Shown: piece after piece, positions 1 through 20,082 of the stretch
How the letters are laid out: each line of letters opens with the position of its first letter
Position numbering within the stretch: position 1 is the stretch's first letter
Assembly: GCA_963809895.1 (NCBI GenBank)
Contig: CAWELD010000003.1
Coordinates: 1,888,001-1,952,000, forward strand
Direction: 5' to 3'
Length of the DNA stretch: 64,000 nt
DNA from: an uncultured Gemmatimonadales bacterium
Lineage (GTDB): Bacteria > Gemmatimonadota > Gemmatimonadetes > Longimicrobiales > Gaopeijiaceae
Notes under the pieces: model-generated
Told to the model about the DNA's origin: nothing
Seen by the model: only the letters and a program-made list of their open reading frames with translations
Database searches by the model: none
Position numbers and translations under genes: made by a program

Positions 1-1193
1 CTCCCGCACATCGGATGCGCTTCCCCCCTCCGTGAGCGCGTCGGGCGCCAGCCCGTGCGGAGCCTCCACCATGCCACGGATCGTGCGCGCCGTCCGCGGC
101 GAAGCGTAGATCGGGATCCCGCGAGCCGCGTACGTGCGCACGCCCGCCAGGTGCGGCCACGCGGGCGAGGCCGCGACGACGCCCTTCACAACCGCGCCCG
201 GCCAGCGCCGCTCGATCTCGTCGAGGATCGACTGCGAATACCCCCCCGAATGCGGCGCTTCGATGATCACCACCCCGTCCGGCTGCCGGACCAGCGTCAC
301 GTCGTAGATGCCGCCGATCTGGACCACGCCTCCGCCGTGCTCGGTGATCGCGGGCGACCCGTTCCCCAGGGAGGTGTCCTGCTGGGCCAGGAAGCCCTGC
401 CGCCGCCCCGCCACGTCCGCGAACGAATCGGCCGGAAAGTCCGCATGCCAGTCGATGTCCGTGTACGAGATCGTCCGCACCCGATGCCCGTCATGCCAGA
501 CGTTGATCGTGAACGGATAGCGGAGCCCAGTGGAGTCCGCGGACCAGTTGGACCAAGCCACGCGCGTCCTCACGTCCCCCCAGACCGCCCAGTTCGGGTC
601 GTCGGCAGTAGCTCCGCACGCCCGTCCACCCGGCCGGGAGCGACGTCTCCGCATCGATCAGCAACCGCAGCTCCGGCTCGCCCCAGGCGACGACATGCAA
701 CCGCCTGCCCCCCAGCACCGTGTCAGGCGCCAGCCACGCATCCGACGCGCCCGCGGCCTCGAGCAACAGACGCTCCGGGGACAGCCGCACTTCCTCCAGC
801 GCCTCCCCCGGCGTCAGGTCGTCGTCGAGATACTGCGTGAACGCGATCGGGTCCGGCCGCATCGGCAGGAGTCCCTTCATCTCCCGAAGCGCCCGCCCCG
901 CCCGGACGTCCCGTTGCTCGGTGAACTCCACCGCGAACACCGGCGGCGTCTCGGGATCCAGGGCCACGCCCACGAGCTGCTCCTGGCGCGCGCCCGTTAG
1001 CTCGAGGGCCGAGATGCCCTCCAAGGCCGCCCGCGATCCCATCGCGTCCAGGGATGCAGCGATCACGGCGTCCGCGGAGGCGCGATCCTGCGGGCATCGA
1101 TGGCTCCCCGTCGGACGGGGGATTCCCCCCGCAGCCGAGAACCAGGATCCCGCCCAAGCCCACGGCCACCACTCCCGCCTTCGTCACCAGCAT
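1..1193 (-). CDS. Exported (probable lipoprotein) MBL-fold metallo-hydrolase-like protein; 3' end runs off the window; two apparent frameshifts (~1085, ~605)
   Basis: N-terminus MLVTKAGVVAVGLGGILVLGC resembles a lipoprotein signal. It joins ORF 491..1066, then a third frame reading WAVWGDVRTRVAWSNW...GVVIIEAPHSGGYSQSILDEIERRWPG...WPHLAGVRTYAARGIPIY, typical of degenerate MBL-fold proteins. Confidence 0.55.
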
Positions 1194-1963
1194 GTCTTCC
1201 TCCCCCCGTCGAGATCCCAGGATGAACGTCCTGCGAACGGTGGGGGGCCCTCACGTCGGTCGCGAGGGGCGTGTGGACGAAAGCCGACTGGGCGGGGATG
1301 AAGGCCGGGATTGTGTGGAGGAAATCGGGGGGGCGGTGGCAGGAGATGATCGTAGCACCGCCCCAACTTGGATGGGCAGGGGCGATTCCGGTTAGAAAGC
1401 GCTAGGTGGTCAGCCGCGACGAGGGTCCCACGAACAGGCTGAAGACGTTGGCGTTGCCTTGCCGAGGTCCAGTGGGGACTCTCCAGGCCGTGGGTTCGAC
1501 AGCTCCGTCAAGAAGCTGGCGGAAACAAGACTTGGGCCCGTTCAGTGGCGTGACGTGTCAGACGGCCGGGCTCATTGCCCCGCTGGCCTTTCATTCCAGA
1601 GTCCGCCCCGAGTCGATTCGCTACCCTCGCCAATTTGCCCAGGTATTCGCAGCTTGGCATTCTCCACTTGGACGGGGCCATAGGCCTAGATGATACTGCG
1701 GGATCCGTGATCCGCACGCGGGAGGTCCTCGTCGGGATCTGGTTTCGGGAGGGCCCTCCGGTTCCGCATGCCTCCGCCGCGGCGCAGACACGGTCGGACG
1801 CCGTCATCAAGGAGTGACCGGGAGACGAGGTGCTTCTCCGACTCCGTCCAGGTCCCAGGAGATCTCCTTCTGGCGGCACGGCTGGTTGAGGAAGTCCCTC
1901 GTTGGCGGGCCCCTTTTCTCGGGTTGCGCTCAACGCCCGCCAATTGAATGCGCAACGAGAGAT

Positions 1964-3181
1964 CTAATCGGCCGGCGCGACAACTTCAGCTGCGCTCTTC
2001 TTCCTAAAAGAGCCGAAGGAGATGTTATCGAGGAATCCATCGGGGATCGCTTGGACCGGTTCTGGATCGGGCGTCTCTCGCTTTGGGGGGACCAGCGAGG
2101 GCTCTAACGAAACCGTGTCGCCGAAGAACTGCCGTCGGATCTCCAAGCCAAGCACTTCGGCCAAGGCACTCGGTACGGCATTCCCAAGTTGCCGCTGTAT
2201 TGCTGTGATTCCGCCTTGTACTTCAAAACCATCTGGGAAAGTCTGGATACGGCAGAGTTCCCGAGCTGAAAGGCGGCGATTCTCCCAATGGAACGGTCCG
2301 ATCGCGCTGCCGGGCTGCGCCTGAACCGTCCACGAGGGGCGCTTCTTCGCGAGCTTTAGAAGCATGCTCCAATAGCGAGAACGCCACTTGAATATTGGAG
2401 TGCCGCCTCCCCTCTCCGTGTGCCAGAGGTAGTTATTCCCTTCGGGGATCGACGGCAACAAGGGTGCCCACTTCCCGGTCACGGCGAGCGCCTCGGCATT
2501 AGCTGGCCGATCAAGATCCCCTAAGGCATCCCAGGCTGTGCGGTAAGGCTCAAGGTCGAAGACTGAAACCTGCTCCGGGTTCTTCGCCGGATCTGCGAAA
2601 CGTGGCCTCGGAAACTCGAACTCCGCGCCATCCCTTGAGCCGATCAGGAAGACCCTCTCTCGGATTTGGGGAACCCCGAAATCCGCGGCATTCAGCACTT
2701 CGAAGCGTAGTGAGTATCCTGCACCCGTCCGATCGTTGATCTGAGAGAGTGCATCCTTGAGGAAGACCATTCCCTCGTCCTTCCCCTCATACGTGAGTCC
2801 GTAGACGTTCTCAAGAAGAAAGGCCTTCGGAAACGTGTCTTCGAGGACACGCATGTACGCCCCGAGCGTGGAAGCACGAGGGTCGTCGAGCCGCTTCGTA
2901 TCGCCTCGGGCCCAGTATGCTGACTTAGAGAACGGCTGGCATGGCGGACCACCACAAAGAAGGTCGGCCTCTCCGGGCTCCAGCCCGGCGGCCTCTAGGA
3001 TCGCCTCGCTCGGTACGTCGTGGATGTCCCGGTCAATCACTGGCCACTCCCGGTTGTGGCGAAGGGTGCGCACGCAGGTGCTGTCCATTTCGACACAGAC
3101 GCGAGTCTCGAATCCGGCCGCCTCTAGCCCGAGGTCAAGGCCACCGGCACCGGAGAACAGGGAGATTAGCGATCGGGACAT
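1964..3181 (-). CDS. DNA (cytosine-5)-methyltransferase of a type II RM system
   Basis: C5-MTase motifs in order: SLFSGAGG (I), GGPPCQPFS (IV), LENV (VI), QIRERVF (VIII), RRLSARE..RIQTFPD (IX), QLGNAVP (X). Confidence 0.97.
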   Translation of the reverse strand: MSRSLISLFSGAGGLDLGLEAAGFETRVCVEMDSTCVRTLRHNREWPVIDRDIHDVPSEAILEAAGLEPGEADLLCGGPPCQPFSKSAYWARGDTKRLDDPRASTLGAYMRVLEDTFPKAFLLENVYGLTYEGKDEGMVFLKDALSQINDRTGAGYSLRFEVLNAADFGVPQIRERVFLIGSRDGAEFEFPRPRFADPAKNPEQVSVFDLEPYRTAWDALGDLDRPANAEALAVTGKWAPLLPSIPEGNNYLWHTERGGGTPIFKWRSRYWSMLLKLAKKRPSWTVQAQPGSAIGPFHWENRRLSARELCRIQTFPDGFEVQGGITAIQRQLGNAVPSALAEVLGLEIRRQFFGDTVSLEPSLVPPKRETPDPEPVQAIPDGFLDNISFGSFRKKSAAEVVAPAD

Positions 3182-3257
3182 TGCGCAGGGTAGGTTGAGG
3201 CTTGAGCTTCACGGGTACCGTATCATACCACCCATCCACTGTACCCTCAATACAACC

Positions 3258-3482
3258 GTGCACATCCACATTCGACTACGCGAATGCATGGACCGCCACG
3301 AAGCGCGGACCGGCCGGCGAATCAGCTACGGGGATGTGGCTGAAGCAACGGGCCTGAGCCTTGCGACGATTGAATCCATCGGATCACGCGAGCACTACAA
3401 CGCGACCCTCGCGATCGTGGCGAAGCTCTGCCGGGCCCTTTCAGTCGATATCGCAGAGATTCTCGAACTGAGGGACAGCTAA
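3258..3482 (+). CDS. Small Cro/C1-type HTH regulator (74 aa), probable RM controller
   Basis: GTG start at 3258: VHIHIRLRECMDRHEARTGRRISYGDVAEATGLSLATIESIGSREHYNATLAIVAKLCRALSVDIAEILEL. Divergent from the MTase; its stop overlaps the endonuclease stop. Confidence 0.85.
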   Translation: MHIHIRLRECMDRHEARTGRRISYGDVAEATGLSLATIESIGSREHYNATLAIVAKLCRALSVDIAEILELRDS

Positions 3483-4564
3483 TCGCCGACAGCCGTGTCG
3501 ACGATTGCTTTCCAACTCTGCAGACCGACAATTGAGGCCTCGATCTCGAGTAGGCGCTCGTAAATGTCGCGGCCGGCAGACTCCAATACTCGTCTCGGCG
3601 GCCGCCCCGAGTTGAACAAGACGCTGCTCAGCAACTCGAGCCATCCGCAATAGACGGCGAGCGAGATCCCGCGGTCGAACGCTGCGTCCACGAGAGCACC
3701 GAGTTCGAGCCGAGGCTGACCTGTCGCAACCGCAACCATTGCCGCCCAACGCGCCTGGGCCTCGTGGGCCTTCACGAGGAAATGCGAGACGTCGTGTACA
3801 CCGACGACCTTATCTCGGACCTCGTACACGCGCACCACCGAGTAGGGATGCTCGGGATCCAGGACACCTACGTCGCCTGGGAAGCGGCGATCAGGGTCGT
3901 TGATTCGATCGACCAAGACTCGCTCCGGGCCGTAGAGCTGATCAAGGAACCCCGCAGCTACCGCCTGTGCTCGCTTCCCTCCCTCGGAATCCTCGCCTGT
4001 AAACTCCGCGACTATCGCAGCCAGTTCTGACGGGGTCACCCTGATCATCGCGTCGCCGTCTAGCGTCGGGGGTGGCGTACGTGCTCGACCCCGGATGAAT
4101 GCTCGAAGAGCTGCGCGCGCATCGCGTTCATCGCCCGCCTCAAGGAGCTGGATACCCTCCAGCATGATCTTAAATGGAACCTCGGCGTCGCCGCGTAGCT
4201 TCTCCGACGCCTCGTCGAGATCCTTCTTCCCAAAGTAGGGCTGGTTGTTCAGCGGCTCGCGTCCAGTAACGCCCAAGTCGATTGACAAAGCGGGTGCCAT
4301 CGCGGCCAGTACGTGCTGAGCGAGGCTCCGAGCGGAGTAGGCTCCGGGAACGCCAGCCGACACCTTGAGTGTCCGCACGTTGACGCGGGGGTTTGTCGCT
4401 TTGGCGAGGATGGCGGTCCCTAACATCGCTATGTGCGTCTTCGGAGCCCTTTCGCAGGCTCTGGAGAGTCTTGCAACGAGGTCGATCCATACATCCGGAA
4501 TCGGCTCTTCGCTCCGGGCGGCCTCCTTGAGCACCTGGCTAGCTTTCTCGTGATCGATCTTCAT
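3479..4564 (-). CDS. Type II restriction endonuclease, SacI family
   Basis: Start at MKIDHEKA. Motifs THIAMLGTAILAKA, YSARSL, DLGVTGREPLNNQPYF, SEGGKRAQA and INDPDRRFPGDV..YEVRDK (PD-(D/E)xK-like) match SacI-family REases as I recall them. Lies next to a C5-MTase. Confidence 0.8.
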   Translation of the reverse strand: MKIDHEKASQVLKEAARSEEPIPDVWIDLVARLSRACERAPKTHIAMLGTAILAKATNPRVNVRTLKVSAGVPGAYSARSLAQHVLAAMAPALSIDLGVTGREPLNNQPYFGKKDLDEASEKLRGDAEVPFKIMLEGIQLLEAGDERDARAALRAFIRGRARTPPPTLDGDAMIRVTPSELAAIVAEFTGEDSEGGKRAQAVAAGFLDQLYGPERVLVDRINDPDRRFPGDVGVLDPEHPYSVVRVYEVRDKVVGVHDVSHFLVKAHEAQARWAAMVAVATGQPRLELGALVDAAFDRGISLAVYCGWLELLSSVLFNSGRPPRRVLESAGRDIYERLLEIEASIVGLQSWKAIVDTAVGD

Positions 4565-5032
4565 ATGTGGCTGGGTGGTGTCAGACTTCTGTCTCAATCG
4601 CGGCATTGGTTCTGGAGACCGCACCGAGACGAGCTTCCTCGCGGATGAGATCTCGCCGCGCAGCCGAAGGTCGTCTCTACACCTGAATCTCAAAAGGCTT
4701 CAAGGCAAGAGGTCCCCATCTGGAAGACATGGTCTGACCCACCCGCGAGCATGCCGCGTAACGTGAGGGGGCTTCCGAACCGGCCCTCAACCAAACGTTC
4801 GACTCGCAGGTTACGCTGAGTCCCGTCGGCTCCGCCAGGGCCTTCCACATGGTTGTGGGTCGATTCGGACGAAGCGCTGCGCCGGTCACCGCGCGGTGCG
4901 AAGCCGAACGCCTCGAGTCAAGTGAGGCGCGAACCGGGCGTTCAAGCCCAGCCCTCCCGATCATGGAGCCGTGACGAGAATGGGCAAGCCACCGTCGTTG
5001 GCCGGCCGATGCGTCTCCGGCACGCCGGGCAA

Positions 5033-5639
5033 TCACACAAGCCACACAGTGACGCCGAATGCACCGAGGACGATCGCTCCGAGGATAAGCCATGGACGCT
5101 GTGCTGCCGCAGACCAACGGAGGCGGGTGAGGAGCTTGCCCCCGAAACTGACCTTGAAGTCGTCAGGCTGTCGCACAGCGAACATCCCGTAGTCGACCGG
5201 CTCGTGGTTCTCAGGAAATCGCTTCAATATGTCGTTGTAGTCCTCAATGAACCCCACCACATCGAGCGCTTCGGCCTCAAGGCTGGCAAGGTCGTAGAGC
5301 CGTCCGAGCCTCGATCGCCGCTCGATGATGTTGGTCGGCCCGAAGCTCATACGACTTCCCATACTCTAGAACTGACACCACAAGAATGGCGATCGCCCCG
5401 ACGGCTGCAAGAAAATCGACCTGCCCGGAGCTTCCAAACGACCCACCGACCAGACCGAAGGCGTTTGCCAAGGACAGGCCCACCAGTCCGAGCGAAGCGA
5501 AAGTTACCGCCCAACGGGACGCCACGCCGGCACGCGCCAGACGGCGGTACGCTTCAAACCGGGCCCCCTTGGTTGTCCAGACCTTTCTCAGTTGCCGGGC
5601 CCTTGAGCCCTCGTCCTTCAGGTTCTTTGGCCGGATCAC
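5033..5639 (-). CDS. SLATT-domain (SLATT_5-like) transmembrane effector; one frameshift at ~5310
   Basis: ORFs 5277..5639 and 5033..5362 join if one G is removed (ATC GAG [G]CTC GGA = IELG). Reads KVWTTKGARFEAYRRL, two hydrophobic helices, RADQHHRAAIEL, ENHEPVDY, then a C-terminal TM helix. This is the RT-associated SLATT pattern. Confidence 0.8.
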
Positions 5640-5658
5640 GTGACCCCCACCGAGCGTT

Positions 5659-5802
5659 GGGATCCACTGCTACATGATTCTGATGGTCGCTTCGCACTCA
5701 CCGTCAGCACGAAGGGTAGAAGCTCCTACGGAGACTCTGATCACAGCCGCCCTACTCCATGGCGTAGGGGTTCGCCCGTCCCGGGCGAGAGCAGTGGATC
5801 CC
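5659..5802 (-). ncRNA. Candidate structured ncRNA of the RT-SLATT system (144 nt)
   Basis: Perfect 13-bp inverted repeat GGGATCCACTGCT (5659-5671) / AGCAGTGGATCCC (5790-5802) encloses hairpins at 5772-5788, 5750-5769, 5713-5738 and 5680-5707. It fills the gap between the RT stop (5809) and the SLATT start (5639). Strand is inferred from the operon. Confidence 0.7.
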
Positions 5803-5808
5803 TAAGGG

Positions 5809-7206
5809 TTAGGAGACGAATGCGATGTCCGCTTCAAGATCCGCAATCTGCTGGTTCCGGTAACGTTCGAACAAGTCATTCACCTGTTCCTCACTCACGA
5901 AGTCGTCAGGTCCGATTCGACCTCTCTCAACGAGGAAATCCAGCCTCTGAGCCATCGTCTCAAAGACATCGTAGTTGTGAACGTAGGCACCGGAAGGCCG
6001 ATGGCGAACCTCATGGAATGCGCGGGCCAGACGCTTGACGTCACCTAGTGACTTTGTAGGTAGGCCCGCGAGCCGCGGGAGCATCGAACGTACGGCCGCG
6101 TCCATCCGAAAGAGCAAGGTCTCGTCAGTCATCGCGGAGAAGTAGAACATCCAGCCATACCTTCGCGACTCGCTGATCGCGCCGGTGATTCGCTCGTTCA
6201 ACTCATCGATGAAGACCTGCCTGGCCAGGTCCGGGGTCATCCAGTCGTGCTCTCGGATCAATCGCTGGCGGTCGCGGCGATACCGCGTTGCCCGTGCTGC
6301 GATCTGCTCGAGGAAGCGATCCACGGAGCTGTCACGCACGGTTACCAAATCGCCGGTGAAGACGTAGCCAAGGAAGCCGATAGCCCATTGAGCTCAAATC
6401 GGCCACCCTTGGCCGTTTGGGGCTCCAGCGGATGCACACGGAGGCCGCGATCCTCCAGCTCACCAGAGACGAACTCATAGACCGTCTCCACCGCATCCGC
6501 GCCCACGATCAGCAGCAGATCATCGACGAAGCGGAAGTAGGCTACCGCGTCTTCCCGGATGCGTTCATCCAAGTCCCCAAGGTAAATGTCGGCGAGGACG
6601 TTGGAGATGCGACAGGCCTTGGGGCACTCCCGCGGTCCGGCGGGTACGCGGAACCTGAGACGTCTACTCCCTTCGCGGCACCGCCGGGTTTCGAATCGCC
6701 CTGTAGACCAACTAGACTCAAAGTCCGGCAGGCGCCGCCGCACAAGGGGCATCAACTTCTCATGAGACACGGAATCGTAGAACTCCTTTATGTCCAAACG
6801 AAGGCATGCATGGGTGCCAGGCTCAGCCTCCGTGACGGCGGTGAGGGCCTCCCGAACCATTGTGTTGGGAAGGACTCGACCAACATGTCCGGAGAACTCC
6901 TCATGTAGGCGTTCCTTAGTTGGAGGAGTGCCAGGCGATCCCTCGCCGTTGGGATGCAGATCTTCGCGCGGCGGGCGAGCTTGGTCCCTTGTTTCGCAAC
7001 ACCTGGGCGTAGTTCCCGAACCGATAGGTGCCGTCTTGGACCTTCTGAGAGACCGTTGCTGCCTCCTCCTCCAGACGATCATCTAAGGCGCTCGGAGCAA
7101 CCCGATCCATACCTCTGGTTTCGTCGAGTCTGAGGCGGTCTCTGTATAGACCAACCAGAGCCTCTAGCGACCAAGGATCCGCCACCATCCCTCCTCGCTC
7201 GAACAT
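5809..7206 (-). CDS. Defence-associated reverse transcriptase (UG/DRT class, ~460 aa), split by about 5-6 single-base indels
   Basis: Stitching frames gives TRGMDRV, YRFGNYAQVLRNKG..KICIPTARDRL, RLDIKEFYDSVSHEKL, GVPQGLS/ISNVLADIYL, YFRFVDDLL, FLGYVF, then a C-terminal extension LNERITG...YGWMFYFS. No group II intron maturase/HNH tail and no retron NAxxH/VTG motifs. Start is ATG 7206 or 7188. Confidence 0.9.
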
Positions 7207-7213
7207 GCCCCTC

Positions 7214-8043
7214 TCATCTCTCTCGTGCCTCATGGGTCTCAAGCAGGAACGTGGCGAGCGTCGTCGCCGCCCCCACGGCAAGACGTGCGTGCCGGGGATG
7301 AACACCTTGCGCCCTCCCGTGCTTTCCATGGCCCGTGCCGTACAGATTTCGAAGCTCAGCAAGGCCGTTAACTAGCGTCGCGAGGTTGCTGAGGAGCCGT
7401 CTGATGGACTCGGCACCCTTGGCGGCATCGTCGATGTCGGCCGGAAGAAGCGTCAGGCCTTTCTCGTCTCCTTCACCAGTCGCGGAACGTCCCACTTAGT
7501 ATCGATCGATACTCCACGCTCGGTGAGGATTGTCTTGCAGGTCGTCTCCACTAGTTCCTTCGCGGTACCGATGGCGAGACTAGGGTCCTGCTCTAGGGCA
7601 CCGCGCATGCGGTCGATCTGCCTCCGGAGTTCCGGGGCGTCCATAGACACGAGCGCGGTTCGTAGAGAGCTGTGTCCGGGAAGGCGTAGGCGCCCATCAA
7701 CCTCCTTCAAACCATCACGCGCCAACCACCGCCGCAACACGGCGGCTGTCTCTTCAGCCCAGTCGGCGTTGTGTCCGCCCCCGGATGCCTCAATGTCGAG
7801 ATTCACGAGGACAGCCTCGTAGACGCGAAGCACTCGGTTCGCCTGGACCGGATCGGACCAGTCGATGCCGTGATAGTACTGTTCGACCAAAGACCGTCGC
7901 TGTCCTCCCACAGGCGGATCGAAAGACAGGTCAGCCTCAAATCCCTCCGCACGAAAGGCGTCGTCAATCTTTGCCAACGTCGTCGAGACGAAGTACTCGC
8001 GGAATTCCTGCCGCGTCTTGATGCTAACGAGGTCTCGCGTCAT
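7214..8043 (-). CDS. Abortive-infection family protein (AbiJ-like N-terminus + Abi_C/HEPN-like C-terminus); one frameshift at ~7456
   Basis: ORFs 7453..8043 and 7214..7495 join by restoring one C (GCC [C]TG). Motifs AIGTAKELVETTCKTIL and ELRNLYGTGHG...HARLAVGAA are typical of Abi_C domains. Confidence 0.85.
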
Positions 8044-8615
8044 GCCAGTACCTAGTGCCTATCGACGTTGCTTAACACGCATGCAATCGCTCCCATGTCG
8101 CGCTTCACTTGACTGCCCATATCCGAGTCCTGCTGTGGCTTCATGGCCTGAGTGTACGCCTGGCACTGGCACCGACCGGCCACGCCCTCCAGAATGGCGC
8201 GTGAAAGCTCCGTCCGCAACTTATGCGATGGGATGATGCAGCCGCGCTGCACACGCACCACATCGGAGACTTGGCAACCGCTCCGCAATCAACGCCCAGC
8301 GATCCCCTGAGTGGACCAGCAGCCCAACTGGCCGGACGAACCCGCCCGGAAAAGGCCCCCCAAGTGCCGGGATGATCGTACCGCCCACCCCGCCCATCCC
8401 GGTGGTCAAACCGTGCAGGCAACCCCCCCGTCCGACCCCCCGCCCAGGGGCCTCTCCTGCGGGGAATCCGTCGCGGCGCAGCCCGCGAACGCAGCGGGGG
8501 CTCGCCTTCCGCCGCGCAGCGACGGCTAGCGAGCCCCCGAATTTCCCAAACCCCAGTTGGGCGAGCGTGCCCCGCAGGGGAGGCCCCTGAGCGGGGGGTC
8601 AGGCCAACAAAGCCA

Positions 8616-9818
8616 CTACTGCACCGTATTGATCATGTCGAAGATCGGCAGGTACATCGCCACGATCATCCCGCCCACGATCACCCCCAGGAACACGATC
8701 ATGATCGGCTCCATGGCCGACAACATGGCCGCCACCGCCGCATCCACCTCTTCGTCGTAGAAGTCGGCGATCTTCTCGAGCATCTCGTCGAGCCCGCCCG
8801 TCTGCTCACCCACGTTGATCATCTGGACCACCATCGGCGGGAACACCCCCGACTCCTTGAGCGGCCCCGCGATCGTCTCACCACCGGCAATGCTGGCCCG
8901 GGATCCCATCACCGCATCGTGGATCACCCGGTTCCCCGCCGTCTTGGCCGTGATCTCCAGTCCTTCCAGGATCGACACGCCCGACGACACCAGCGTGCCC
9001 AGCGTGCGCGTGAAGCGGGCCACGGCCGCCTTGCGCTGCAGGTCCCCGATCAGCGGCATCGCCAGCAGCATCCGGTCGACCGTCAAGCGTCCGCCCTCCG
9101 TTCGGTAGAACTGCCGGATCGCGAAGGCCGTCACCATCACCCCTCCCAGCACCGCCCACCAGTACCCCGTCAGGAAGGCCGACAGCCCGATCACGATCCG
9201 GGTCGGCAGCGGCAGCGGCACGCCCACAGAGCTGAACATCTCCTGGAAGGTCGGGATCACGAAGATCAGCAGGATCGTCACCGCGGAGGCGGCCACGGTC
9301 AGGATCACCGCCGGGTAGATCATGGCGCCTTTGATCTTCCGGACCAGGGCGTCGTTCTTCTCCAGGAAGGTGGCCAGGCGGAGAAGGATCGTGTCCAGGA
9401 TACCGCCGGCTTCACCCGCGGCCACCATGTTCACGAACAGGTCCGTGAAGACCCGCGGGTGGCGGCTCAGGGCATCGGCCAGGGTGTGGCCCGACTCCAC
9501 GTCGTAGAGCACGTCCTGGATGATCTTGCGGAGCGACTTGTTCTCCGTCTGCTCGGCCAGGATGTCCAGGGACTGCACCAGCGGGAGCCCCGAGTTGATC
9601 ATCGTGGCGAACTGACGCGTGAAGATCACGATGTCGCGCGTCTTGACGCCCGTTCCGATCTGGAAGCTGATCTCGCGTGACTTTTCGCGGACCGATACCG
9701 GGATCAGCTTCTGACGATGCAGGAAAGAAAGGACCTCTTCCTTGGTCGGAAGCTCGATCTCGCCGGACTGGATGTCCCCGCCGGTGGCGGGACGGGCGCT
9801 GTAGGCGAACGTTGGCAT
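8616..9818 (-). CDS. pilC: Type IV pilus inner-membrane platform protein PilC (T2SSF family)
   Basis: FTRQFATMINSGLPL, AGEAGGILD, GEQTGGLDEML, AMYLPIF; follows pilB-pilT. Confidence 0.95.
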   Translation of the reverse strand: MPTFAYSARPATGGDIQSGEIELPTKEEVLSFLHRQKLIPVSVREKSREISFQIGTGVKTRDIVIFTRQFATMINSGLPLVQSLDILAEQTENKSLRKIIQDVLYDVESGHTLADALSRHPRVFTDLFVNMVAAGEAGGILDTILLRLATFLEKNDALVRKIKGAMIYPAVILTVAASAVTILLIFVIPTFQEMFSSVGVPLPLPTRIVIGLSAFLTGYWWAVLGGVMVTAFAIRQFYRTEGGRLTVDRMLLAMPLIGDLQRKAAVARFTRTLGTLVSSGVSILEGLEITAKTAGNRVIHDAVMGSRASIAGGETIAGPLKESGVFPPMVVQMINVGEQTGGLDEMLEKIADFYDEEVDAAVAAMLSAMEPIMIVFLGVIVGGMIVAMYLPIFDMINTVQ

Positions 9819-9826
9819 GGCCTACC

Positions 9827-10970
9827 TCAACCTAAACTGGAGGGCATGGTCTCGCCGACGGACCGCAGGAGCTCCTGCGGATCGGCCGAGCGCTTGAGTG
9901 CTTCCTCCAGCGTGATCTCGTTCTTGAGATACAGCATCTGGAGGGAGTCGTTCATCGTCTGCATGCCGTGCTTCTTGCCGGCCTGCATGAGCGAATAGAT
10001 CTGGTGGATCTTCTCGTCGCGGATCACCGCGCGAATGGCCGGCGTGCACATCATCACCTCGGAGGCGGCGACCCGGCCCCGGCCCTTGGCCCTCGGGATC
10101 AGCGTCTGGGTCACCACGCCCTCGAGCACGAACGAGAGCTGGGCCCGCACCTGCGGCTGCTGGTGCGAGGGGAAAGCGTCGATGATCCGGTTCACGGATT
10201 CCGCGGCGGAGTTGGTGTGCAGCGTGGCCAGCACCAGGTGGCCCGTCTCGGCGATCGTGAGCGCGGCGCTGATGGTCTCCAGGTCGCGCATCTCGCCGAT
10301 CAGGATCACGTCCGGGTCCTGCCGGAGCGCGTACTTGAGCGCCGCGGCGAAGGACTTGGTGTCGGCACCCACCTCGCGCTGGTTCACCACCGAGTTCTGG
10401 TGGCGGTGGATGAACTCGATCGGGTCCTCGATGGTGATGATGTGCGACTTCCGCTCCTTGTTGATCTTGTCCAGCATCGCCGCCAGCGTGGTCGACTTAC
10501 CCGAGCCCGTGGGGCCCGTCACCAGCACCAGGCCCCGGGGCCGCTCGGCCAGCTTGTTGATGATCGGGGGCAGCCCCAGCTTCTCCACACTCTGGATGTC
10601 GTAGGGGATCTGCCGGATGGCCAGCGCCACGCAGCCCCGCTGCTTGAAGGCGTTGCCGCGGAAGCGGGACAGGTTCTGCACCCCGAAGGAGAAGTCCAGC
10701 TCGTCTTCGGTCTCGAAGCGCTTCTTCTGATTCTCGGTGAGGATCGAGTAGGTCAGGTTCAGCGTGTCCTTCGGGCGCCAGGACCTTCGGGTACTGGGAG
10801 TTCACCAGGTCGCCGTCCACACGCACCTTGGGACGCTCGCCCACGGTCAGGTGCAGGTCCGACGCGCCCCGGCTGATCATCTCCTGCAAGAGGTTGCGGA
10901 GACTCAGCTCGGGGATGCGGGCTCCCTCCTCCTTCACGTTCTGCGCGCTGGTACTGGCTTGTTCGCTCAT
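9827..10970 (-). CDS. pilT: Type IV pilus retraction ATPase PilT; one frameshift at ~10772
   Basis: N-terminal ASDLHLTVG (ORF 10497..10970) joins ORF 9827..10681 with GPTGSGKSTT, TIEDPIE, LRQDPDVILIGEMRD, TGHLVLATLHT and PAIRAVIRD. Confidence 0.93.
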
Positions 10971-11046
10971 GCCAGATCTCGGGCTCGGGCGTCTTGTTCG
11001 AGGACCCGGACGCTCCGGGCCACGTGGGGAGGATGGTACGGCATCG

Positions 11047-12756
11047 TCAATCCGACGTCTCCTTGACGATCTCTTCCAGCGTGGTGATCCCCCGCTCCAC
11101 CTTCACGAGACCGTCCATGCGGAGCGTGAGCATGCCCTGACGGAGCGCGATCTCCCGGAGGTCGTCGGTGCTCCGCTCTTCCATGATGCCCCGGCGCAGC
11201 TCCGGCGACATGGCCATCACCTCGTACAGGCCCTGACGGCCCCGGTAGCCGGTGCCGTCACACTGCTCGCAGCCCGTGCCCTTGTAGAAGGTCGTCTTGT
11301 TCGCCCAGTCCATGGGCAGCTTGGCCGCGTGCAGGTACTCCTCTTCGTAGGTCGTCTCGGCCTTGCAGTTGGCGCAGATGCTCCGCACCAGCCGCTGGGC
11401 CGTCACCAGGTTGAGGGCCGAGGCCACGTTGAAGGGCTCCATGCCCATGTCGATGAGGCGGGTGACCGTCGAGGCGCAGTCGTTGGTGTGCAGGGTGGAC
11501 AGCACCAGGTGTCCGGTGAGGGCGGCCTTGAGCGCGATGCTCCCCGTCTCCAGGTCGCGGATCTCACCCACCATGATGATGTTGGGATCCTGACGCAGGA
11601 AGGCGCGCAGCGCCGCGGCGAAGCTCATGCCGATCTCGGTGCGCACCAGCACCTGGTTGATGCCGTGGATGTTGTACTCCACCGGGTCCTCGGCCGTCAT
11701 GATGTTGACGGACTCGGTGTTCACCCGCGACAGCGCCGAGTACAGGGTGGTGGTCTTACCCGAGCCGGTGGGGCCCGTGACCAGCACCATGCCGTAGGGC
11801 CGCGAGATGGCCCACATGAAGTCCTGCTCGGCCTTGGGCTCGAACCCGAACTTGGTCAGGTCGAAGGTCAGGTTGCCCTTGTCCAGGATGCGCAGCACGA
11901 TCTTCTCGCCGAAGATCACCGGCAGCGTGGACACGCGGAAGTCCACCACCTTGTTGCGGATCCTGAGCTTGATGCGGCCGTCCTGCGGCACCCGCCGCTC
12001 GGCGATGTTCAGGTCCGACAGGATCTTGATGCGCGAGGTGAGCGCCGCCTTCATCTTGAAGGGCGGCTTCATGACCTCCTTGAGCGTGCCGTCGATGCGG
12101 TAGCGCACCCGCACCTCGCGCTCGTAGGGCTCGATGTGCACGTCGCTGGCGCCTCGCATGACCGCGTCGGTGAGGAGCCCGTTGATGAACTTCACCACCG
12201 GGGCCTGGTTCACCTCCGCCTGCAACGCGGACAGCGAGACGTCCTCCTCCTCGTCCTCGACGAACTCGACGTCCTCCTCGATCAGGTCCTCGAGGATGTC
12301 CGCCATGCGCTGATCGGCGCTCTCGTAGTACTTCTCGATCTGATGTCGGAGCGTGTACTCGCCCACCACCACCGGCTCGATGTCCAGCCGCGTGATGAAC
12401 TTCAGGTCGTCGATGGCCCCCATGTCGGTGGGGTTGACCATGGCGACCGTGAGCGTGCGTCCCATGCGCCGCAGCGGGAGCACCAGGTGCTTGAACGCCA
12501 CCTCGCCGGGCACCAGGCGGAGGATCTTGGGATCCACCTCCACCTTGTTGAGATCCACGGCGGGCACCCGGTACTGCCGGGCCAGGACTCGGGTCAGCGC
12601 GTCTTCGGCGACGTAGCCGAGACGCACCAACGCAAAACCCAGCCGCGTGCCCTCCTTGCGGGCCTCGCGGAATCCCTCCTGAAGCTGATCGTCCGATACC
12701 AGTCCCTCGCGGACGATCAGATCGCCTAGTCGATCCTGGGCGACGTTGGTGGCCAT
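11047..12756 (-). CDS. pilB: Type IV pilus assembly ATPase PilB
   Basis: Start MATNVAQDRLG; ASDVHIEP, ERRVPQDGR, GPTGSGKTTT, LRQDPNIIMVGEIRD and a tetracysteine motif. Confidence 0.95.
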   Translation of the reverse strand: MATNVAQDRLGDLIVREGLVSDDQLQEGFREARKEGTRLGFALVRLGYVAEDALTRVLARQYRVPAVDLNKVEVDPKILRLVPGEVAFKHLVLPLRRMGRTLTVAMVNPTDMGAIDDLKFITRLDIEPVVVGEYTLRHQIEKYYESADQRMADILEDLIEEDVEFVEDEEEDVSLSALQAEVNQAPVVKFINGLLTDAVMRGASDVHIEPYEREVRVRYRIDGTLKEVMKPPFKMKAALTSRIKILSDLNIAERRVPQDGRIKLRIRNKVVDFRVSTLPVIFGEKIVLRILDKGNLTFDLTKFGFEPKAEQDFMWAISRPYGMVLVTGPTGSGKTTTLYSALSRVNTESVNIMTAEDPVEYNIHGINQVLVRTEIGMSFAAALRAFLRQDPNIIMVGEIRDLETGSIALKAALTGHLVLSTLHTNDCASTVTRLIDMGMEPFNVASALNLVTAQRLVRSICANCKAETTYEEEYLHAAKLPMDWANKTTFYKGTGCEQCDGTGYRGRQGLYEVMAMSPELRRGIMEERSTDDLREIALRQGMLTLRMDGLVKVERGITTLEEIVKETSD

Positions 12757-12956
12757 ACCGTGCGGGTTTCCTCTGGTGGGAAGGGGGGTGCCCGGTTGTG
12801 ATGGAAGCGACAAAGGCCCACACCCTGCCCGTGCCGGCGCCCTTCGGGAACGGCCCGCCGACTCGAACAGGGAAACGGATGTAGTCATTTCAAACGTAGG
12901 CCGGCCCGGCGCCACGGGTCAAGCATCGTAAAACGGGCCTGGCAAGCCGGCCCCGG

Positions 12957-13646
12957 TCATCCTCCTCCGAGGCGCACGAGCGGCTTCAAGCGCGCCAGCA
13001 CGGCGGGCCCGATCCCCCGCACGCGCAGCAGGTCGTCGGGGGTGCGGAAAGGCCCGTCCCGCTGCCGCGACTCCAGGATCCGGCGGGCCAGCGCCGGCCC
13101 GATTCCCGGGAGCGCCTCCAACGCCCCGGCGTCGGCGTGGTTCACGTCCACGGCGGCGGGCGCCGCCGCCTCGTCCGCCGCCGGTCCCACCAGCGGCTCG
13201 TAGCCCCGGGCGCCGTCGTCGGCGTCCCGCACCAGCGCCACCGAGGCCGGCGGGCGCGAGAAGTCCAGCCGGTCCCGGAGCCGCGTCACCGTGGCCGGCC
13301 CGATGCCCCGCACCCGGGTCAGGTCGTCGGGCCCCCCGAATCCCCCCTCTCGGGTGCGGAAGGCGACGATGGCCCGCGCAACCGACGGCCCCACGCCGGG
13401 GAGCCGCTGCAGCTCGGGCTCGTCGGCCCGGTTGGGGTCGATGCGCTCGCCCGGCGCCAGGGGGGTGGCCGCCCGCGCCTCGGCGTCTGCCGCCGCCCGC
13501 GCCGCCGAGTCCAGCGCCGGCAGCGCCGAGCGGGTGCCGGGCAGTTCGGGCGCAGGGTGGACCCGCTCCACGCCCCAGCGCACGAGCCCGGCCACCAGGA
13601 GCGTCAGCGCGGCCTTCACCAGGGTCCCGCTCTCGCTCTGCGTCAC
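12957..13646 (-). CDS. comEA: ComEA-family DNA-binding protein with two HhH domains
   Basis: N-terminal TM helix; two repeats IDPNRADEPELQRLPGVGP..A..IV..R and VDVNHADAGALEALPGIGP...VRGIGP. Confidence 0.88.
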   Translation of the reverse strand: MTQSESGTLVKAALTLLVAGLVRWGVERVHPAPELPGTRSALPALDSAARAAADAEARAATPLAPGERIDPNRADEPELQRLPGVGPSVARAIVAFRTREGGFGGPDDLTRVRGIGPATVTRLRDRLDFSRPPASVALVRDADDGARGYEPLVGPAADEAAAPAAVDVNHADAGALEALPGIGPALARRILESRQRDGPFRTPDDLLRVRGIGPAVLARLKPLVRLGGG

Positions 13647-13734
13647 CCCTCACGGTGGCCGCGCCCCGCGGGCGATGGCATGGCCCGTTGCGCCCCTCCG
13701 CCCGCCGTCGCCCGCGCGCCCCCGCGTCAGCGCG

Positions 13735-16700
13735 TCAGCGCGCGCCGGGAAGCCCGGGCGCACCGGACAGCCCCGGCAGCCCCATGGCGCCGGCCTCGAG
13801 CAGGAACTGTCCGAAGACCGAGAGCTGGAACTGGGTGGAGCCCCGGCGCTGGCCCACGTACGACTGGCGGTCGGTGTAGCTGGCCTGGATGCCCACCTCG
13901 AGGCTCCGCACCTGGGAGTCCAGGGTCATGGAGAGCGCGCGGTTGAGCTGGTCCACGAAGGCCACGCACTCGGGCCGGCCCACGGGCACGCGGCACTCCC
14001 GCTCGGCGACGTAGCTGGCCAGGAGCGACAAGCGCACGGGCCGGCTCACGCGAGCGGCCAGCCCGAAGGGCGGCAGGAAGGACGAGGTGACGGACAGGCG
14101 GTGGGTGGTGCGCTCACGCTCGGTGTCGCCGGTGGGGTCCTCGCCGGTACCGGTCTCGAACCCGGCGCGGTACGACGTCACCAGCCCGCCGGCCCAGGCC
14201 AGCGTCAGGTCCAGCGGCACGCTGCGGTCGTCGAGCAGGCGCCGCTGCGCCGCCTGGCCGTAGACCAGTTGCCGCCGCGCCCGCCGGATCCCGGCCGACA
14301 ACGAGATGCGCTCCAGGGCGCCCCCGAGTACGTCGCCGGCGGGCAGACCGTCGACGCTGGCCCGCAGGTCCGGCCAGGTCTCGGTGCGCACGGTGCGGTC
14401 CGCGCGCGTGTCCAGCGTGGCCACCTCGGTGCGGGCGTAGGTGGCGTCCAGCCCCAGGTGGTCGGCCAGCACGCCCCAGCTCACCTGATGGGCGCTCCGG
14501 TCGGTGAGGGTGGCGGCGGTGTCGCCGTCCAGCACCCGGTAGCCCCCCAGCCCGGTCCAGCCGAACTGGTAGCCCAGCCCCGGATCCACGGGGTCGCGGT
14601 TGAAGCGCGAGAACAGGCCTCCCTGCCAGGTCCAGGACACGGGGCGCAGGTGCCGGAGCACGGCGCCCAGGAATCCCCCGTCACCCGCCTCCGCCCCACC
14701 CAGCGCCTGGGCCAGCGCGTCGGGCTGGAAGCGCGACGAAGGTTCGCAGCGAGCGCTCGCCGCTGGCGTTCCGCTGCAGAAAGACCAGGCTGTCCAGCGG
14801 CTGGGGGATGACGCCCACGAAGCCCGGGTTGCGGTCGCTGTCGTAGCGGGTGGTGAAGGTGAGGTCGTGTCGGAGCCAGGGGACCACGCGCGGGCGGTAG
14901 GACACGGTGGTACGCAGGCTGCGGTTGGTCTCCCAGCCCAGGTCCACCCCGGCCACCTCGGCCCGCTGGTCCTCCAGGAGCTGCTGCACGTCGGGGTCGG
15001 CCACCACGTCTTCCGGGCGCAGCAGATCGCGGGTGGACAGGAAGGTGAGGTCGGCGGTCAGCGATCCCAGGGGCCGGAAGGTGACCTCCGCCGCCGACTC
15101 CAGCGCCTCGCGGGGCGCCTCGGTGGGGGTGACCAGCGAATCCTCCGGCGTCTCGATGATGCGCTGGTAGCGGAAGATGCGGTTGTCCTGGCGCGAGAAC
15201 GACGTGCCCACGATGAAGCGCTCCGGCGACCAGCGCACCCTGGAATCCAGGACCTTGTCCTCCAGGGGCTCGGGCAGGAGCAGGCGCACGAGCCCCTCCA
15301 TGAAGCCGGGGATGGGATCGAACTCCCGGGGCTCCAGACGCCGGTCGTAGCCCAGGCGCAGGTCCATGCCGCTGGCCTCGAGGCGCGAGGTCACCGTCGA
15401 CGAGCGCGCCTTGTACCAGGCCACGTTGCCCTCGAGCCCGTCCATGACCGCCCCCAGCAGGGGGTTCGCCATGGGGGTGGTCTTGCGGAAGCCCAGCGAC
15501 ACGCGGGTGCGCCGGGAGCCGGTGTCGCGCAGGTCACCCAGGCGGTCGGCCCGCACGTCGGAGTCGGTGAGGAAGGTGGGGTCCACGGTGGCGCGGTCCA
15601 CGGTGAGCGACAGCGGCAGCTCCACCCCCCACTCCGCCGGGGCCAGCCGCTCCAGCCGCGCCCGCGAGGTGAAGGTGAGGCGGCGGTCGGTCTGGTAGGT
15701 GGCCCCCTCGCTCGAGCTGGTGGAAGAAGGCGCCCCTGGAGGACAGGGTGAGCTGGTTCTGCAGCACGTCGCCGGCGTTGAGCGAGGCGTTCACCACCCC
15801 CGCCAGCCCCGCGTCGTGCACCCCCCGGGACAGGCGCAGCTCGTCGATCCACACCTCGCCGTCGAAGGGGGTCGGGCCCCGGTTCCACACGCCCACGGCC
15901 AACTCGCGCACGTTGGCCAGGTCCGGCGCCCGCCCCCGGTCCCGGAGCACCACCGCGTAGGTGGAGTCCTGCGCCCACAGGGTGAGGGGCGGATCACCGG
16001 GTCCCCGGGGATTCAGGTTCAGGTCCTCCTCGGCGCGCCGGCGGAGCTCCTGCAGCACGCCGAAGTCCACCACCACCTCGGGCAGCCAGTCCGAGGGGAC
16101 CACGCCGCCGGGGTCCGAGGGGCGCCGGAGCGTGGTGCGGTACAGATAGAAGTTCTCCGGGTCGGTGCCGATCTTGAGGAAGAACGACACCGGGCGCTCC
16201 TCGCCCCAGTCGCCGGAGCGGGCCACCACCCACAGACGGGCCTCGCGGTAGGAGAGGAAGTCCCGGGGCCGCTGCGGAAAGCGGCTGTAGACCTCGGCCC
16301 GCTCGCCGGGCTGGATGTCCTCGACCTTGAGGCTCAGCGACTTCTCGTTGAACTCCACCCCGGTGCCGCCCACCGCCGAGGTGGGGTCGGCGAGCTGCTC
16401 GAGCACGCCGGGCGGCGAGGCGTAGGCGTCGCCCTCGGTGACCCGGCTCACCGGACCCACCTCGACCCGGCCGCCGGCGGCCAGGGTGTCGCCGATGATG
16501 CCGGTGAGCACGCCCTCGATGCCGCGCTTGATCCAGCGCGAGCCCACGATGCGCATGCGGGCCAGGGTGATGTCGGTGCGGTTGCCGCCGGTGACGGTGA
16601 TGCGCAGGTGGCGCACGGCCCGCAGATCCGCCTCGGTGACGGGCCCGTTCACCTGCGTGGCCAGCGTGGAGCGGATGGGGATGCGGTAGAGGCGGAACTG

Positions 16701-19700: not shown

Positions 19701-19914
19701 GGCCCAGGTACACCAGGGGCGGACCGGCGGCGCCCGGCCAGCGGGGCGGCGGGCCCACGGGACGGGGCGCCAACAGGTCGGGCCGCAGAATCGTGTCGGC
19801 GCGGGCGAAGCGGGCCCCGGGCGCCGGCCGCGGGTGGAACGCGCCTCCTTCCTGTGGCGGCGGCGGGCGGACCACGCCCAGAATCGCCATCAGAGAAAGG
19901 AAGAAGAGACGCAT
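13735..19914 (-). CDS. sprA: SprA/Sov-like giant outer-membrane protein (~2050 aa); frameshifts at ~19390, ~15705, ~14730
   Basis: Signal peptide at 19914. Stitched ORFs include YEGQEDDILKRFEVGDVTF, IVDGSERV...LVRGVDYEIDYDVGQV, GNGRNDTEDLDGDGNL, NEKSLSL and GEVWIDELRL (SprA-type motifs as recalled), with a beta-strand-rich C-terminus. Confidence 0.75.
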
Positions 19915-20082
19915 GGCCTCGGCTCAGTCGAAGGACCGGTTCGCGCTGCGGCGGGTAGGAGGCGTTGCCGCGTTTCCGCATCGGCCGGTTGAGCGGAATC
20001 GCGGCGCCGGTATACCTTCGTACCTCACCGAGTACGCGACAGTCCGCCGGGGGTTTCCCGGCCCCCGGATCGCCCCGACGGC

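Follow-up and report, generated by a model that had tools for sequence, protein, structure and literature searches.

DRT10 was described in 2025-2026 as a system of a reverse transcriptase (RT), a non-coding RNA (ncRNA) and a SLATT protein, making protein-primed tandem-repeat DNA. Its RTs are of the UG17 type. The link between UG17 RTs and SLATT proteins was noted by Mestre et al. 2022 (PMC9226505), where SLATT proteins are also reported to accompany DRT3 and UG28. Here we describe a locus of the same composition in 64,000 nt of DNA from an uncultured Gemmatimonadales bacterium (GenBank assembly GCA_963809895.1, contig CAWELD010000003.1, positions 1,888,001 to 1,952,000 of the forward strand), a stretch that is called the window throughout. 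On its minus strand an RT gene is followed by a spacer that holds a structured RNA, and then by a SLATT gene.

The name DRT10 was given by Tang et al. (bioRxiv 10.1101/2025.10.16.682844), who reported that defence requires the RT, a 137-nt ncRNA and the SLATT protein alike. In the Eco3 system the RT uses its own C-terminal serine (Ser456) as primer, and in Eco1 a tyrosine (Y444) (bioRxiv 10.1101/2025.10.16.682844). According to Ramirez et al. (bioRxiv 10.64898/2026.06.29.735271), two RT monomers sit on one pseudo-symmetric RNA, in which the stem SL1 is built from the two ends of the molecule, Loop A gives rise to abortive products and Loop B is the template of the repeat. In Loop B the arrangement A-B-A' comes after a stem-loop. 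Sanchez-Nieto et al. (bioRxiv 10.64898/2026.04.29.721553) distinguish three UG17 subtypes and report an 'alternative RT-SLATT arrangement' in which about 200 bp separate the genes and the ncRNA lies upstream of SLATT. The 'RT-SLATT locus' of an Escherichia coli H120 prophage is placed in subtype UG17-B in the same work, and Methylotenera mobilis JLW8 is another named representative. In the available text of these reports, RT-dependent tandem-repeat complementary DNA (cDNA), and phage defence that depends on RT, ncRNA and SLATT, are given for E. coli systems only.

Genes of the locus and their order

The window locus is read here as a DRT10 (UG17) anti-phage system in the order RT - ncRNA - SLATT, and we give this a probability of about 0.9. 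The original prediction, which was made from the DNA letters, had described a minus-strand RT masked by insertions and deletions (indels) and carrying a set of named motifs, and this proves accurate. Six full-length homologues were aligned to the DNA, homologues P0001-P0009 were used in tblastn, and the three frames were read. The resulting path is collinear and free of stops, with eight one-base frame changes (four bases extra and four missing, net zero). Along it lie LDIKEFYDS, GVPQG (in a frame that differs from that of its neighbours), FRFVDD and FLGY.

All three pieces of the protein are recognised by the PADLOC profile RT_UG17, which has 429 positions. The N-terminal piece matches positions 12-77 (E 2.3e-11, 41.2 bits), the middle piece positions 96-252 (E 6.5e-25, 85.8 bits) and the 179-aa C-terminal piece positions 275-428 (E 2.7e-38, 129.9 bits). 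This profile is the sole match for the two outer pieces and the top match for the middle one, on which Pfam RVT_1 is also found. By profile the gene encodes a UG17 RT, the three matches together reaching from position 12 to position 428, and no second copy was found in the genome. When ten reading frames of the locus and its surroundings were searched against Pfam, a family was assigned to six; the four that matched none were the N- and C-terminal pieces of the RT, the N-terminal piece of an AbiJ-like gene that is discussed below, and a frame of 67 aa. Homologues are numerous: with the C-terminal 179 aa as query against 1.84 billion representative proteins, 460 were obtained at E<=0.001, the best being 51% identical.

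Residues at the active site and at the C-terminus were counted in the 97 proteins of full length (430-500 aa) that the 150 listed relatives include. The catalytic motif is YVDD in 83 of them, FVDD in 11, YIDD in 2 and YADD in 1. FVDD had earlier been suggested to mark a divergent variant; since 11 of the 97 listed relatives have it, it is no novelty and is to be seen as a natural variant. Both catalytic aspartates are retained in the window RT. Its sequence ends in ...DIAFVS, so that the final residue is a serine, the priming-type residue. The same position is occupied by serine in 63 of the 97 proteins and by tyrosine in 19.

The second gene encodes a SLATT_5 protein. A SLATT transmembrane protein had been proposed at this place, together with a search against the SLATT families, and that search supports it: Pfam SLATT_5 (192 positions) is found on both halves of the gene, at profile positions 9-104 (E 3.5e-19) and 125-190 (E 5.5e-07), and PADLOC RTasSLATT likewise matches both. 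The break near 5309 that separates the halves was missing from the earlier description.

In order to compare gene order, one genome per species was scanned with an alignment of 30 homologues. Of the 420 stretches matched, 369 encode relatives, from which we retained the best 80. The same type of scan with the lone C-terminal RT piece recovered no relative. The best 80 relatives span many phyla, the top one coming from a metagenome-assembled genome (MAG) of Gemmatimonadaceae. By profile search the RT is present in all 80 loci and a SLATT gene in 67, and the linkage of homologous RTs to SLATT, on which the original prediction had staked its case, thus holds in these 67 of the best 80. In 61 of them SLATT lies downstream on the same strand, in five upstream, and in one downstream on the opposite strand; several of the 13 loci with no SLATT gene stop at a contig edge. 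The median spacer, in the 61 loci and the window together, is 195 nt.

The earlier statement that the UG17/DRT10 group combines RT, ncRNA and SLATT was correct, and is now in print. From the RT-first order, by elimination and from the placement of H120 in the available text of the paper, we infer that the locus is of subtype UG17-B.

Origin of the frame changes

There are ten indels overall, eight in the RT gene and one each in the SLATT gene and the AbiJ-like gene (Table 1). All are of a single base, five extra and five missing, and they fall mostly within runs of two to four identical bases. No stop is met over the approximately 940 codons read through, and no deletion is larger than one base. 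Bacterial gene decay favours deletions, and in real decay substitutions should far outnumber indels, with some of them giving stops.

Conserved genes are broken in this assembly as well. Within the window, two host genes are frameshifted relative to their counterparts in related genomes, pilT (9830-11102) being in two frames and a gene of about 2000 codons (13738-19553) in three; the gene at 1-1066 also looks split between frames, judging from overlapping frames and a phase switch in the GC content of third codon positions. Against a first relative, the background amounts to 4 junctions in 60.2 kb, within 3 genes (41 usable genes of 97 query open reading frames (ORFs)), and against a second to 6 junctions in 55.1 kb, one of them on the antisense shadow of the large gene just named (46 usable of 80 ORFs). 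Further split conserved genes occur elsewhere in the genome (G000:C4:175007-177141; C3:2580717-2582553; C10:1196988-1198170; C3:116231-118238; C3:1791229-1793884). A search for public sequencing runs over 5033-7362 listed none. From the indirect evidence we consider that the frame changes of the locus are probably errors of assembly or consensus within a patch of low quality, in an assembly that is prone to indels; the system would therefore be functional in the organism.

One different account of the fifth and sixth RT breaks was considered, namely an in-frame TAG near 6665, that is, a nonsense mutation. It is disfavoured, because two shifts give EGSRR after AVP, which fits the VP-x-G-x-RR of the relatives, 10 residues before GVPQG. 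No motif common to the surroundings of the ten indels was seen by eye, without a statistical test. It may be added that a GAGCTC site at 6395-6390 lies 5 nt from the RT break at 6384, and that GATC is found at two other breaks.

The alternative that survives best is a true pseudogene. The DRT10 and AbiJ-like genes would have been inactivated as costly or toxic abortive-infection modules and would have drifted, and the adjoining restriction-modification (R-M) pair, being addictive, would have stayed under selection. Several observations favour this and count against a working system. As assembled, the RT and SLATT genes are not translatable. Within 5033-8043 there are ten shifts in 3.0 kb, a local rate some 40 times that of conserved genes in the same assembly (0.07-0.11 per kb), and seven to eight of the RT's breaks are bunched within about 600 nt. 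The adjoining R-M genes, 2.7 kb in all, have zero frame changes. Such clustering can be explained equally well by a bad patch and by selective decay of abortive-infection genes that are costly, and toxicity of UG17 upon loss of the host exonuclease SbcB is published. Set against this are the single-base lesions with extra and missing bases in equal number, the stop-free reading, the retention of the motifs, the length and the C-terminal serine of the RT, and the breaks in conserved genes such as pilT. On balance we regard a pseudogene as rather unlikely, and assembly error as the probable origin; a mixture of error and decay takes up what probability remains. The assembly being indel-prone, gene calls and 'pseudogenes' of accessory islands in this genome need caution in any case.

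The RNA between the genes

The spacer had been described as almost filled by a closed multi-hairpin, and the fold bears this out. A perfect basal stem of 13 bp, formed by 5802-5790 with 5671-5659, encloses four inner hairpins, and the whole covers 5802-5659 of the spacer at 5808-5640. Inside the basal stem there are, in order, two hairpins, a single strand with GUGAUC, a stem-loop, a longer stem-loop and an 18-nt single strand.

Both the structure and its place are conserved. In 60 of 62 spacers, the window included, there is a basal stem with 6 or more stacked pairs and a span of 80 nt or more, and L041, one of the two exceptions, showed the stem after the region was extended. The motif GURAUC stands at the same place in 14 relatives, and in the 15-sequence alignment (A2) the positions G59, T60, A62, T63 and C64 are invariant. 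A covariance model, R1, was seeded with 15 sequences including the window, whose own score of 70.3 bits is thus obtained by construction. At E<=1 it finds 38 sites in the window and the 80 loci (629,942 bases), and all 38 are downstream of the RT on the same strand. In the 20 best relatives, with the window left out, 84.4% of cells are paired, compared to 70.4 +/- 1.0% in shuffles (0 of 500 reach the observed value); as this alignment was fitted to the model, the figure is tilted towards the structure. When the partners are slid by 1-3 columns, the paired cells fall to 36.7-47.9%. Among these relatives 30 of the 35 pairs change on both sides, over six helices.

Membership of the window RNA in this family was examined with models that leave the window out. 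R3, a full-length model of 12 relatives, has a single match in the 64 kb, end to end at 5660-5802 (16.2 bits, E 0.018). A sequence-only profile of 20 relatives (nhmmer) has its sole match at 5754-5723 (E 0.074). In the genome of 5.33 Mb there are 18 perfect inverted repeats of at least 13 bp spanning 110-175 nt, and GTRATC at offset 40-80 is found only in the one described here.

The evidence that is specific to the window RNA is nonetheless modest, and a number of points weaken it. The calibration of R3 is rough, and its training alignment was made with R1, in whose seed the window was one of 15 sequences. R2, an internal covariance model of 81 positions built from 19 relatives without the window, gave no match with default filters; run unfiltered on 1-20000 it ranks 5699-5771 first, at 8.4 bits and a non-significant E of 1.4. 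The fold energy of the sense strand is not significant (z -0.91, 34 of 200 shuffles being as good), and the antisense spacer folds better against its own shuffles (z -2.08). A scan of the locus found no sigma-70-like promoter.

The fold energy and the promoter scan might suggest that the hairpins are a mere terminator or a translational control element of the two genes, and not an RT template RNA. This is very improbable. No terminator was found in the spacer, the two terminator-like sites in 4900-8300 both being at 7729-7746; the helices covary in the relatives and the single-stranded GURAUC is invariant among them; and in the published systems the RT binds the RNA found at this position, and defence depends on that RNA.

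Given that the RNA is of the DRT10 type, its Loop B is the candidate template. It reads CGACC-AUCA-GA-AUCA-UGU, with A at 5684-5681, B at 5680-5679 and A' at 5678-5675. Following the rule in print, AUCAGA would be the template A-B, and a cDNA unit of 5'-TCTGAT-3', that is (TCTGAT)n, is weakly predicted. Loop A also holds AUCAGA, which fits the published pseudo-symmetry. Statistics do little to strengthen the assignment. A repeat as long as AUCA occurs in 27% of shuffles of the window Loop B, so AUCA-GA-AUCA is consistent with a template and is not evidence for one. In the 38 RNAs the longest A averages 3.76 nt, compared to 3.32 nt in shuffles, a difference that is not significant, and A has at least 4 nt in 24 of the 38.

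By analogy with the published systems, expression, template register, cDNA, trigger and effector step in the window locus may be pictured as follows. Once expressed, the 144-nt RNA, with its basal stem and two pseudo-symmetric halves, would scaffold two RT monomers. One monomer would start on the hydroxyl of the C-terminal serine of the RT itself and copy the template in Loop B. With each copy made, the end of the cDNA would re-anneal to the downstream repeat A', giving a long single-stranded tandem repeat. A host 3'-5' exonuclease would keep this DNA low, and phage infection would let it build up. The SLATT protein, with its two transmembrane segments, would then damage the membrane and abort the infection.

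In three relatives (L007, L009 and L013) the order is SLATT_5 - RT - ncRNA, with a Pfam-confirmed SLATT_5 upstream of the RT. The RNA model matches just after the RT stop in all three, with 58-62 bits and outside its seed (L007:2123-2261, L009:4837-4978, L013:4867-5007). In L013 there are 83 nt between the preceding ORF and SLATT, so that no RNA of this size fits upstream. Because these loci carry the RNA after the RT and SLATT upstream, the RT-RNA pair looks like a fixed unit in this branch. We tentatively put forward a joint reading, which is possible though doubtful as a whole: the conserved unit of this UG17 branch would be the RT with its downstream ncRNA, with SLATT on either side; the RNA may be made or processed from the RT transcript, and its definition as the RNA upstream of SLATT would then not apply; the window RNA would belong to a GURAUC subgroup (Cyanobacteria, Gemmatimonadota, candidate-phyla bacteria and archaea) that is not named in the available part of the published DRT10 text; and a telomere-length repeat of 6 nt, (TCTGAT)n, would be made from it.

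It is worth adding that a second RNA is seen in spacers of RT-first loci. It is longer (about 177-181 nt), occurs mostly in betaproteobacterial loci (L027, L029, L032, L053, L054, L057, L060, L072, L075 and others) and shows GCGGAAGUGCUCC and GGAUAUGAC as conserved stretches; its match to the window-type model is weak (21-36 bits). It is probably the published UG17-B RNA of Methylotenera.

Genomic setting and comparison with named systems

The locus lies in an island that makes up the first 8.6 kb or so of the window and has a G+C content of about 60%, compared to about 72% for the remainder. We compared 20 related genomes, among which an unpublished one (G013) is counted only in the tallies for the island. 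No DNA counterpart of the island was found across these 20, save for a stretch of about 150 bp just upstream of pilC in one genome; DNA similarity to the related genomes starts at pilC, at 8613. On the minus strand the island contains, in order, the AbiJ-like gene, the RT, the spacer of 169 nt, the SLATT_5 gene, a SacI-type endonuclease and a C5 methyltransferase. All features are listed in Table 1.

Table 1 Features of the DRT10 locus and its island, in window coordinates, with the single-base frame changes.
Feature	Position	Strand	Remarks
UG17 (DRT10) RT	7206-5809	-	~465 codons, nine frame segments; ATG at 7206, stop TAA 5811-5809; PADLOC, Pfam, tblastn
Spacer between RT and SLATT	5808-5640	-	169 nt
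DRT10-type ncRNA	5802-5659	-	144 nt; fold, R1 and R3 models, genome descriptor
GUGAUC in Loop A	5744-5739	-	window copy of the GURAUC motif
Loop B candidate template AUCA-GA-AUCA	5684-5675	-	letters, and loop defined by family structure
SLATT_5 membrane effector gene	5639-5033	-	two frames; GTG at 5639, stop 5035-5033; Pfam, PADLOC RTasSLATT
AbiJ-like gene with Abi_C domain	8043-7214	-	two frames; Pfam Abi_C E 1.3e-24, PADLOC AbiJ E 3e-08
SacI-type restriction endonuclease	4693-3479	-	intact; Pfam RE_SacI 2e-34
C5 DNA methyltransferase	3181-1964	-	intact; Pfam DNA_methylase 5.6e-56
Cro/C1-type helix-turn-helix ORF, between methyltransferase and endonuclease	~3300-3482	+	HTH_26 5.3e-09
RT break	near 6984	-	one extra base
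RT break	near 6962	-	one extra base
RT break	near 6917	-	one base missing
RT break	near 6711	-	one base missing
RT break	near 6675	-	one extra base
RT break	6660-6636	-	one base missing, place not fixed
RT break	near 6609	-	one extra base
RT break	near 6384	-	one base missing
SLATT break	near 5309, in GG at 5310-5309	-	one extra base
AbiJ-like gene break	near 7459	-	one base missing

The stop of the AbiJ-like gene is 7 nt ahead of the RT start, and its N-terminal domain is of no known family. The gene was considered as a fourth DRT10 component, and this was dropped: no homologue was found in the 80 related DRT10 loci, and it is therefore treated as a separate defence gene of the island. The helix-turn-helix ORF is likely the controller protein of the R-M pair.

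Between the endonuclease start and the SLATT stop, at 4747-4913, there is a repeat of about 110-165 nt with an imperfect internal inverted repeat. Seven more copies, 80-89% identical, are clustered 1.3 Mb away (G000:C3:3213477-3262749), near a tyrosine-recombinase-like ORF (C3:3212002-3212391) and an IS110-like ORF. An attC-like site and a miniature mobile element are both possible identities of the repeat.

The least probable alternative, that the RT is of a different class (retron, group II intron, DRT3/UG3 or DRT9/UG28) and has its SLATT neighbour by coincidence, draws on the known pairing of SLATT proteins with DRT3 and UG28 (PMC9226505) and on the further matches of the middle RT piece among 52 PADLOC families (Drt3a 59.1 bits, RT_UG36 57.2 bits), and is set aside in view of the higher RT_UG17 scores, the SLATT genes adjoining in 67 of the best 80 relatives, and the absence of any Rfam match at E<=1 in 4500-8500, and thus of a retron msr/msd or intron RNA. 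The original prediction that the RT is neither a retron nor an intron RT is in agreement with this, and no retron or intron profile in PADLOC outranks UG17.

Like DRT10, DRT9 (UG28) and DRT3 (UG3+UG8) are UG systems of Class 2 whose synthesis of repetitive DNA is protein-primed or ncRNA-templated, and SLATT proteins occur near them. The window locus differs from them in that RT_UG17 outranks Drt3a and UG28 is not among the PADLOC matches listed. DRT9 makes poly-dA from a poly-U template, a tract that the window RNA lacks.

The likeness to Eco3 DRT10 is much closer. Both have a compact RT (about 456 aa in Eco3) ending in a priming-type serine. Their ncRNAs are alike in size, at about 140 nt, and in build: SL1 forms the base, there are five stem-loops, and Loops A and B measure 12-15 nt and 18-19 nt, respectively. 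The order in print, which runs from SL1 through two stem-loops to Loop A and through further stem-loops to Loop B, is also that of the window RNA. The differences are in the gene order, which is ncRNA-SLATT-RT in Eco3 and RT-ncRNA-SLATT in the window; in the cDNA repeat, which has 9 nt in Eco3 (GAATCATTG) and a predicted 6 nt in the window; and in the catalytic motif, YVDD in Eco3 and FVDD in the window system.

The DRT10 system and the RT-first gene order are both already described in print, and the window locus is a further copy. The novelty claimed for it at first was overstated, the RT-first order with an ncRNA in the gap being a published arrangement. Taken alone, one more DRT10 locus, possibly damaged, in a high-GC environmental bacterium carries little weight. 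It does show that reading raw sequence can recover a defence system that is masked by frame errors. In addition, the RNAs of RT-first DRT10 loci form a well-covarying family, and a model of it could serve for annotating such loci and for predicting the repeats that they make.

The closest described system is the RT-first DRT10 (bioRxiv 10.64898/2026.04.29.721553). In both, the RT is upstream of SLATT_5, the two genes are separated by about 200 bp in which a structured ncRNA lies, and both agree in the RT family, by profile, and in their setting in a defence island. The window locus differs in that its genes are frameshifted as assembled and that its host has a G+C content of 69%. UG17-B is named in the available text for Pseudomonadota and Bacteroidota, and the locus most closely related to that of the window is the one in the Gemmatimonadaceae MAG. 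The window ncRNA falls in the subgroup with GURAUC in Loop A, a subgroup shared with cyanobacterial, Thermodesulfobacteriota, Saccharibacteria and Methanosarcinales loci.

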